A stretch of 64,000 nucleotides of DNA, from positions 4,399 through 68,398 of the forward strand of contig OMXW01000004.1 in the NCBI GenBank assembly GCA_900315085.1. Reading direction: 5' to 3'. Below are positions 27,924 to 47,007 of the stretch, one piece after another. The notes below the pieces were generated by a model. That model searched no databases. It saw only the letters and a list, made by a program, of their open reading frames with translations, and had not been told where the DNA came from. The translations under genes were made by a program, and so were the position numbers. The first letter of the stretch is position 1. Each line of letters opens with the position of its first letter. The DNA is from an uncultured Eubacteriales bacterium (GTDB taxonomy: Bacteria > Bacillota > Clostridia > Oscillospirales > Acutalibacteraceae).

Positions 27924-27999
27924 GCTGATGTGGCGCAGCCGGTAGCGCAACTGATTCGTAATCAGTAGGTCAGGGGTTCAAATCCCCTCATCAGCTCCA
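27924..27999 (+). tRNA. tRNA-Thr (anticodon CGT)
   Basis: 76 nt; acceptor gctgatg/catcagc, anticodon loop ttCGTaa, T-arm agggg-ttcaaat-cccct, encoded CCA. Confidence 0.97.
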
Positions 28000-28389
28000 A
28001 GTAAAAGAGCATCCCAAAAGGGGTGCTCTTTTACTTTACCTCTAAAATGCTGATGAGGGGATTTGAAGGCGACCGTTAAGAAAACGTGCCGGCGGCACGT
28101 TTTTAGGGAGAGCGATGATGGAAGTTATCCCATAGAAAGTGGACGCAACAGGCGAGGAGGAAGTATTGATGAAAGCATCAGCTCCAAGTAAAAGAGCATC
28201 CCAGCGGGGTGCTCTTTTACTTTACCTCTAAAATGCTGATGAGGGGATTTGAAGGTGACGAGAACGACCGCCGCCGGTGGCGGATGAAGGGAGTTCGAGG
28301 AAGAGCCGAAACAGGGAGTTTGAGGAAACAGCTTTAGCTGCGACGATAAACGACCATGTTTCAATCGGAGACCGATAAGAAAACGTGCC
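27977..28389 (+). repeat. tRNA-Thr-linked fold-back/core cassette (two units)
   Basis: Direct repeat 27989-28069 / 28176-28255; inverted tRNA 3' copies at 28049-28067 and 28235-28253; core 28068-28175 shared with the tRNA-Ser locus. Confidence 0.9.
28000..28035 (+). terminator. Terminator after tRNA-Thr (second copy at about 28187-28221)
   Basis: agtaaaagagcatccc-aaaa-ggggtgctcttttact. Confidence 0.8.
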
Positions 28390-29129
28390 TATGCGGTTTT
28401 TTTATAGAAAATTAAAAGGCACAAATAAACGCTTAAAAACAGCGCTAAATCCAAAAATGTAAGTCAAAGGTTAGTCAAAAAAACGCCTCGGAGTTATTAT
28501 TCGGAGACGCTTTTGATATTGTTAATCATATTTATGTGTAATATGTGGTTAATACTTACAAAGAAGGTAGAAAATATAGGAAAATATATTAAAATGATAT
28601 AAGCATTATTGTTAAAACATTCATTTTTTATTAAGTGGTATTATTTTGTAAGAAACGCGGATGAATATCTTTTATTCATTTTTCATTTGTTAAGGTTTAA
28701 AAGTCTGGTAAACAGCCAATAATTAATATTTTGGGTTGATGCAAAATAATATTAATATATATTAATAAAAATGAATTTTTTATAAATATTTGCTTTGCAA
28801 TATTTTGTTACTCATTAAATCTATATTGCTATAATAACAATATTTGACAAAACATGACTTTATTTGAAATGCTCTCTATAAAAAATATCTGCGCTTGAAA
28901 TTGATTGAATTTGAAATTAATGTGCACCAAAAATTTGTAAATTCATGTCCTAAAATGATATTATAAAACATACTTAGTCAAACTCAATCACCGTCAACCA
29001 ACATAATACACAAAAATAATAAATAAATTGTGAAAATATCATTTATTATGAGAATTTACTTTTTTTGTTTTTTTAGGTAAAATATATACACAGAACAAAA
29101 ATTAACCACTAGGAAAGGAGTTTTGTCAT

Positions 29130-46242: not shown

Positions 46243-46456
46243 GGGCTGTCGCACAGGAACGACACTGGGGTCGTTCCCTACAATCCGCAAATAAAAAGTC
46301 CTTCCCTTGAGGGAAGGTGGGCAATCCGCTTGCGGATTGGTCGGAAGGGTGACCTTTACGGAACATTTCCTACATTGTTATTCTTCTGTAATATAGCTTC
46401 GCTCATGTCACCCCTCAGTCTTGCGTATGCGCAAGACAGCTCCCCTCAATGGGAGC
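46243..46456. repeat. REP cluster: MITE-end remnant, CTAC half and family C doublet
   Basis: gggctgtcgca 46243-46253; ggaacgac..gtcgttccctac 46256-46281; ccttccc-ttga-gggaagg...gggtgac 46300-46353 and gtcacccctcagtc...gggagc 46407-46456. Confidence 0.75.
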
Positions 46457-46503
46457 ACATTTAATAATCTTGACAATCATTAATATTGAAAACAAAGTTT
46501 TTC

Positions 46504-46753
46504 AACAAAAAAAGCACCTTGTTAGGTGCTTTTTGTTTGGCGGAGAGAAGGTATGTAGGGTAGTAAGGTGAAGTTGTACCCCGCCTGATGGGTTCACTTT
46601 CTATGAGAAACGTAATCATCAGCGCTCTCCCTAAAAACGTGCCGCCGGCACGTTTTCTTAACGGTCGCCTTCGAATCCCCTTCTCCTAAATCCGCAAACA
46701 AAAAAAGCACCCTGTTAGGTGCTTTTTGTTTGGCGGAGAGAAGGGGATTCGAA
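46504..46753 (-). repeat. tRNA-Ser-linked fold-back/core cassette
   Basis: 48-bp direct repeat 46504-46551 / 46697-46744 (1 mismatch); palindrome 46670-46753; core 46552-46669 homologous to 28068-28175. Confidence 0.9.
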
Positions 46754-46795
46754 CCCCTGGTACGGTGATTACCGTACACATGATTTCCAATCTCC
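46731..46795 (-). pseudogene. tRNA-Ser(GGA) lacking the D-arm region (65 nt)
   Basis: Minus strand GGAGA-ttGGAaa-tcatg, long variable arm, agggg-ttcgaat-cccct, tctctcc-G-CCA; D-arm and 5' anticodon stem absent. Confidence 0.85.
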
Positions 46796-46809: not shown

Positions 46810-46838
46810 ATTATATCAAATAATATCCGAAAAATCAA
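46810..46838 (-). promoter_or_regulatory. Sigma-A promoter for the tRNA-Ser remnant
   Basis: Minus strand TTGATT-17 nt-TATAAT with TG extension, 14 nt upstream of GGAGA. Confidence 0.75.
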
Positions 46839-46942
46839 GTCTTATTTTTGTATTTGTTTATCCGAAGCTCAAAAAATATCTGTTCGGTGTGTATTTTATC
46901 TATTTTTTCATGAATATTTTTACAAAAAAATGTTATAACACC

Positions 46943-46971
46943 TTGATTTTTGCGAATAACTCTGTTATATT
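46943..46971 (+). promoter_or_regulatory. Sigma-A promoter for the amino-acid ABC operon
   Basis: TTGATT-17 nt-TATATT with TG extension. Confidence 0.55.
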
Positions 46972-47007
46972 TATTAGTGACAAATTTTTTAGGGAGATGT
47001 ATTTAAA

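Follow-up and report, generated by a model that had tools for sequence, protein, structure and literature searches.

The closest described counterpart of the repeat reported here is RtT (rttR; RF00391), a set of 178-bp repeats in the tyrT-tyrV operon of E. coli in which spacer, inverted arm and folded core follow a tRNA end and a direct copy of its tail closes the unit, the units standing in tandem. RtT, long known in E. coli, is treated in the papers found as an RNA rather than as a retargeting mobile element, and its mode of action is called unknown in a 2024 preprint (10.1101/2024.07.17.603846). The genomic islands of tyrosine integrases also combine an intact tRNA gene with a displaced direct 3' fragment and form tandem arrays; the integrase leaves the tRNA fragment in direct, not inverted, orientation, and Islander discards candidates that are shorter than 2 kb or have no integrase (PMC4383910). 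REP/REPIN-RAYT systems and non-autonomous elements of the IS200/IS605 type share with the present repeat a gene-less, modular and palindromic build, strand asymmetry, spread within a genome and strictly paired stems. A short sequence 5' of a hairpin that could pair with the target adds to the likeness to these systems, and IS110 bridge-RNA elements are similar in holding a target-matching segment inside a conserved scaffold.

The window analysed here, a stretch of 64,000 nucleotides on contig OMXW01000004.1 of an uncultured Eubacteriales bacterium, carries such a repeat behind a tRNA-Ser(GGA) and a tRNA-Thr(CGT) gene (Table 1). It is built like RtT and, by score, is not a member of that family. 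In each K-12 RtT repeat the arm ends in GAA opposite T54-C56 and the direct copy begins at position 58, and a short GA-rich motif is common to RtT and the core found here, whereas the RtT arm mismatches positions 57-58 and its core measures ~85 nt, compared with 108-118 nt in the window. RtT has 1-14 matching places per E. coli genome and the K-12 copies examined all lie at tRNA-Tyr, whereas the present family spans 30 tRNA end types. RF00391 gave no match at E ≤ 1 in any of five carrier genomes, and none in the window, with a positive E. coli control. From integrase islands the units differ in their length of 0.2 kb, the lack of an integrase, the added inverted arm and the presence of one core at many tRNAs; the displaced fragment, which starts from position 63 (Ser), 66 (Thr) or 59 (subfamily B), does not span the T-loop. 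Strict targeting of the tRNA T arm, a duplication of ~50 bp, locus-specific arms and the absence of a linked Y1 gene set them apart from REP/REPIN-RAYT systems, and the long target duplication, the lack of an extra tRNA match in the core and the absence of an IS110 transposase from four of five carrier genomes (it was matched in the fifth) set them apart from IS110 elements. No description of the present repeat family was found in a literature search that covered few subscription journals.

Table 1 Coordinates of the features of the tRNA-Ser and tRNA-Thr loci in the window
Feature	Position	Strand	Details
tRNA-Ser(GGA)	46731..46795	(-)	T54=46753, A76=46731; as assembled without 28 nt of the D arm
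Promoter-like -35/-10	46838-46810		Upstream of tRNA-Ser(GGA)
Ser terminator palindrome 1	46696..46730	(-)	Apex of the long fold-back
Ser spacer and arm	46670..46695	(-)	Inverted copy of tRNA-Ser positions 69→54 at 46670-46685
Ser core, subfamily A	46552..46669	(-)	118 nt; conserved ~55-nt hairpin with 3-nt loop, then variable part
Ser direct copy of positions 63-76 and terminator copy 2	46504..46551	(-)	Tail copy at 46538-46551
tRNA-Thr(CGT), intact	27924..27999	(+)	T54=27977
Thr terminator, 12-nt spacer and arm	28000..28067	(+)	Arm 28049-28067, inverted positions 72→54
Thr core 1	28068..28175	(+)	Right end shortened; direct copy from position 66
Thr direct copy of 66-76, terminator copy, spacer and second arm	28176..28253	(+)	Second arm at 28235-28253
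Thr second core, other module type	28254..28400	(+)	Right end approximate

A sequence-only reading of the window had described at each locus an imperfect palindrome with the terminator at its apex (Ser 46670-46753; Thr 27977-28067), the distal arm of which copies the tRNA back to the T-loop, switches there to a core and is disrupted opposite the discriminator and CCA end. Both palindromes were recovered at these places, with the core standing directly after GAA at both loci. The Ser arm is the exact complement of tRNA positions 54-69, with zero mismatches; beyond position 69 a 4-nt insert is followed by pairing with 70-74, and C75 has no partner. The Thr arm pairs with 54-72 and its 12-nt spacer lies opposite the discriminator/CCA. 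The interval given by that reading for the Ser locus also takes in a second part, the direct copy and terminator at 46504-46551, which its text did not discuss. The Ser unit has a period of 193 bp, its two terminators differ in one loop base and the open reading frames of the window include none within it. Its fold-back has an RNA fold z of -7.8, with 0 of 200 shuffles folding as well. The suggestion that the arm could pair with and unfold the tRNA in read-through RNA is borne out by prediction, the arm replacing T arm and acceptor stem at the Thr locus (-74.5 kcal/mol with the arm, -55.6 without). The order of parts at the Thr locus is the same as at the Ser locus, but there are two units, the second with a differing module that recurs in the complete genome G002, where it follows tRNA-Arg and tRNA-Thr. 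The first 47 nt of the Thr and Ser cores are identical and the sequences diverge thereafter, the variable part being of near-constant length and ending in YA.

An Rfam scan of the window returned only tRNA-Thr above a cut-off, and low-score matches at the Ser locus were due to the tRNA or the terminators. Both ARAGORN and Rfam miss tRNA-Ser, because the assembled gene is without 28 nt of its D arm; the gap, near 46790-46792, is flanked by a 3-nt microhomology, and the D arm is present at the other tRNA-Ser(GGA) loci compared. As the D-arm letters appear as a loose end at 46792 in each of the four DNA runs and in three of the four RNA runs, and contigs with the upstream flank of this very genome begin with extra letters at this site, the deletion is probably an assembly slip. 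Comparable fused or clipped tRNAs occur elsewhere in this genome (G000; C59, Lys/Gln; C121, Leu). At 46250-46480 the Ser unit is adjoined by two further dispersed palindromic repeats: one is a REP-like hairpin of the GTAG type, the other is MITE-like, and C79 of the same genome holds a near-identical copy of the latter; strain variants and a 41-nt skip are visible here in sequencing runs.

A scan blind to the core found an arm (at least 10 of 12 nt matching) at 9 of the 33 tRNA-like 3' ends of this genome, and all nine arms end opposite T54; random 130-mers gave 7/1320. To these a core search added a Leu locus, clipped at its end, and four copies that do not lie at an intact tRNA. In G002, where 47 tRNA genes were examined, units stand behind nine tRNAs and two tRNA fragments, in arrays of up to three full 198-bp units. 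Scanning the species collection for the exact core gave 49 loci, two of them chance matches and 46 with GAA directly before the core; one locus (L065) has no arm. The arm pattern followed by G is present in 53/61 genomes of the genus, where a few of the matches are not at tRNAs, and in 26/301 genomes of the class (reversed control, 1). Presence is patchy at orthologous tRNA-Ser genes, with the full unit in four relatives, the arm alone in one and absence from several. Sequencing runs containing the stretch are goat or bovine metagenomes where the habitat is named. A metagenome scan matched 117 stretches, of which four passed the filter, three of them behind tRNAs, a sample too small for tracing a partner gene. 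Phage records gave no match and plasmid records a single 40-nt match, and matches in IMG/VR, considered as phage-borne units, proved to be host-side copies at prophage edges or chance. One contig of a phage collection (L158) has a tRNA cluster in which tRNA-Gly is followed by a related unit.

Several variants of the layout were seen. Units also lie in tRNA operons without a terminator (L042, L089, L091, L093, L102), where an antisense arm of 15-20 nt must be part of the same transcript as the tRNA. On C82 of this genome (6840-7150) the core behind the tRNA-Gly arm is of a different kind and is repeated in tandem, at ~133 bp per unit. Cores on C79, C151 and C60 are cut at the hairpin or terminator, apparently by the ends of another insertion element, and C60 holds a displaced piece of a tRNA-Ala unit.

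Junctions were compared in a non-redundant set of 40 units next to tRNAs, which represents 23 distinct 3' ends and omits units without an upstream T-loop and, by hand, nine chance, duplicate, truncated or aberrant loci. Pairing of the arm covers positions 54-58 and 61-63 in every unit and position 59 in 35 of them, and the variable position 57 (27 G, 13 A) is tracked throughout. Arms match their local tRNA at a mean of 13.25 of 14 positions, compared with 9.9 for other tRNAs, and follow species-specific alleles of the same tRNA-Ser (L002 vs L004). Matching decays beyond position 67 and falls to 10-38% at 73-76, and isolated arm:tRNA mismatches have no G-U bias (5 G-U, 5 A-C, 15 other). The sequence-only reading had allowed that the GAA at the junction might belong to the core and resemble the T-loop by chance; since the variable positions 57, 62 and 63 track the local tRNA in 40/40 units, it cannot be dismissed in this way. 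The junction itself can be placed only between 57|56 and 54|53, a 3-nt ambiguity, because T54-C56 is invariant in tRNA. The core-initial G of the 40-unit set is an effect of selection, and the cognate arm abutting the core is not.

In an additional search for arms followed by A, C or T, which removes this bias, 14 of the 30 units stop at 54, five at 53 and 11 reach 51-49; where units reaching 51 or 50 had a direct copy, it starts at 59 (7/7). Class-wide, the direct copy starts from 59 in 14 of the 18 units having one, and none was seen at 10/28 loci. Subfamily A copies start mostly from 61-64 (62/63) and omit the T-loop, the arm of subfamily B runs to position 51 with a direct copy from 59, and the copies of related subfamilies start from 59 or 56-58; the Glu unit of G002 is a further exception. 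In 31/35 units, position 66 of the direct copy is reached 116-121 nt from the start of the core (search range 95-135). Junctions are thus precise yet specific to each subfamily, not universal. Within the subfamily the junction is constant across 23 distinct 3' ends and in the core-blind scan, which supports the earlier proposal insofar as it set aside random slippage; the variation in junction position that was said to count against it is seen in part, in the form of other fixed junctions in other subfamilies. In several subfamily B units (L281, L285, L286, L288, L291, L292, L317) a sense copy of 51-53 also tracks the local tRNA, so that the core takes up the position of T54-A58 within a copied T arm, mostly behind a UGAGA/UAAGA-like loop.

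The conserved part of the core is strictly paired. In a covariation set of 27 hand-picked diverse copies, whose structure was drawn from the same alignment and in which related sequences can exceed shuffles, the inner core helix is paired in 269/270 cells, with changes on both sides at 6 of the 10 pairs and no G-U step. Core hairpin loops have 3 nt, with a central G in 45 of 51. Strict Watson-Crick stems, 3-nt loops and unbiased mismatches fit DNA hairpins better than RNA helices, and we lean towards single-stranded DNA on these grounds. Subfamily B counts against a DNA element, since it favours the tRNA-sense strand (34 G-U vs 10 A-C), on which it has several helices and an RNA-like UGAGA/UAAGA loop. 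The variable half of the core has no folding signal (z about -0.3). Hidden or C/D-box-type guides were considered there and rejected, with no excess match to the local tRNA (longest match 6.0 nt, vs 5.7 for other tRNAs; complement 5.7 vs 5.9). Variable cores at different tRNAs of one genome are more alike (0.55; 27 pairs, drawn from few genomes and not independent) than those found at one and the same tRNA across genomes (0.48; 135 pairs; shuffle baseline 0.37), and the nearest neighbour of a core lies at a different tRNA for 39/58 units. Cores thus move or are converted between loci, with the arms staying cognate.

Searches for an associated enzyme were negative. Clustering of 377 neighbouring ORFs yielded none that travels with the unit, and no mobile-element gene recurs beside units except the integrases of separate islands. 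Y1 transposases do not track the number of units (mean 3.2 hits in 33 genomes with units, 2.9 in 28 without); no core motif was found beside six Y1 loci, and G002, which has many units, gave no Y1 or IS110 match. A reverse transcriptase was matched in two of five genomes, a patchy distribution. Two weakly matching Y1 ORFs flanked by GTAG-type palindromes (L143, L145; G000 C141, C38) are RAYT-like and not tied to tRNA units. Four DNA runs contained no joint of an excision, an event that the sequence-only reading had proposed to look for in reads, and no pair of empty and filled alleles within one species was present among the genomes compared. One contig from an RNA run (X16) closes on itself after exactly 193 nt; we give it no weight, because a tandem array, a circle or graph simplification could each account for it.

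Our preferred explanation, to which we give an even chance, is that this gene-less unit passes from one tRNA gene to another in the form of folded single-stranded DNA, with the target templating both copies and a predicted nicking enzyme setting the junctions. The target strand would be cut inside the T arm, before 62/63 in subfamily A and before 59 in subfamily B, and the 3' end of the core would be joined to the downstream tRNA tail, which would become the direct copy. The upstream end would then be extended over tail and terminator, fold back and copy itself as far as the T-loop, giving the arm, before being joined to the 5' end of the core next to GAA; the tRNA gene would stay intact throughout. 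Crossover between direct repeats would build the arrays, and modules would be exchanged among the cores of different loci. Under this explanation the target gene must supply both copies, because a donor bringing the tail of another tRNA would break the acceptor stem. The two terminators within one unit are often near-identical, and at L091, inside an operon, the duplication seems to take in host spacer, both as expected if the target is copied. An AGCAA spacer motif, found in 11/58 units at seven tRNA types, is not accounted for by pure fold-back copying and counts against mobile DNA, as do the negative enzyme searches and the lack of an excision joint and of an empty and filled allele pair. 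A more ambitious form of the explanation, which we put forward tentatively as somewhat short of an even chance, would make the family a widespread, self-reprogramming gene-less mobile DNA, in which a conserved folded scaffold carries a guide arm complementary to the T-loop, an enzyme acting in trans cuts at one set position of the T arm, and guide and flanking repeat are rewritten from each new target, RtT being a stranded member.

That the unit is instead a functional RNA like RtT is unlikely in our judgement, and is the alternative that survives best. Arm and direct copy would pair into a helix resembling the acceptor/T helix of a tRNA, its CCA end free, or the arm would pair with the T-loop of its own tRNA, tuning processing or turnover, and recombination would spread the unit. 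The Rfam closing stem of RtT consists of arm and direct copy, as does the closing helix of the predicted Ser unit fold, in which the last two bases are free; yet a direct copy from 62/63 leaves arm positions 54-62 without a partner in the unit's own RNA. An RNA role keeps its share of probability because arm pairing fails opposite the CCA end and because of the RtT precedent, RtT RNA being described as tied to tyrT processing and the stringent response (10.1101/2024.07.17.603846). RNA-library contigs cover the unit in two of four runs, and one of them (X15) covers 46504-46726, with 46820-46974 without cover, which points weakly to such a role, although contigs give neither transcript ends nor strand. 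The lack of G-U wobble in the main hairpin, the unstructured variable half and the patchy presence at orthologous tRNA-Ser all speak against it.

We regard as improbable a process without a dedicated enzyme, in which replication template switching at terminator palindromes makes or corrects the arms and gene conversion spreads the core. The negative enzyme searches would be expected, quasi-palindrome correction is an established process, and the shared 47 nt and subsequent divergence of the Thr and Ser cores, like the mosaic modules in general, fit conversion. Correction from the apex should, however, perfect positions 73-76 first, yet these match worst and the far end best; the right junctions are base-precise with no homology 5' of them, as at position 59 class-wide; and units also stand at tRNAs without a terminator (L042, L089, L102).

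A T-loop tyrosine-integrase crossover, the enzymatic route named in the sequence-only reading, would make the units minimal islands, scars or folded single-stranded attachment sites used in trans, and we consider this very improbable. A tRNA with a displaced direct fragment is the signature of an island, and subsites are known at the T-loop and at the T/acceptor junction (PMC4383910, 10.1101/2020.11.02.365908); ORFs judged from sequence to be integrases of larger islands lie within 1 kb at six loci. The crossover is nevertheless contradicted, because the direct copy omits the T-loop and integration leaves a direct fragment, creating no inverted copy; no integrase lies in the unit or consistently beside it, one core family at 23-30 tRNA ends is at odds with the site specificity of integrases, and a circle bearing the tail of one tRNA would break a different one. 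A self-splicing intron or retro-element was rejected, with no catalytic motifs recognisable by eye and the reverse transcriptase missing in three of five carriers.

Sequences that resemble the attachment arms of islands were observed right after the direct copy at several loci (G000 C41, C121; L005, L080, L094, L099, L100, L105), which suggests that the duplicated tail of the tRNA serves larger islands as an integration site. At tRNA-Arg(ACG), a mini-island of 728 bp (G000 C51, 46038-46790) has an anticodon-loop fragment and no integrase, and contains two small ORFs that by eye resemble a RelBE-type toxin-antitoxin pair.

Units of this kind are lost to island finders that ask for an integrase and a minimum of 2 kb, and their direct copies duplicate landing sites for integrases. 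If an enzyme writes the ends from the target, it would amount to a new way of targeting tRNA loci and might serve as a tool. The RtT layout is now seen behind dozens of types of tRNA; its ends track the target and its junctions are specific to each subfamily, so that the origin and function of RtT become testable by comparison.
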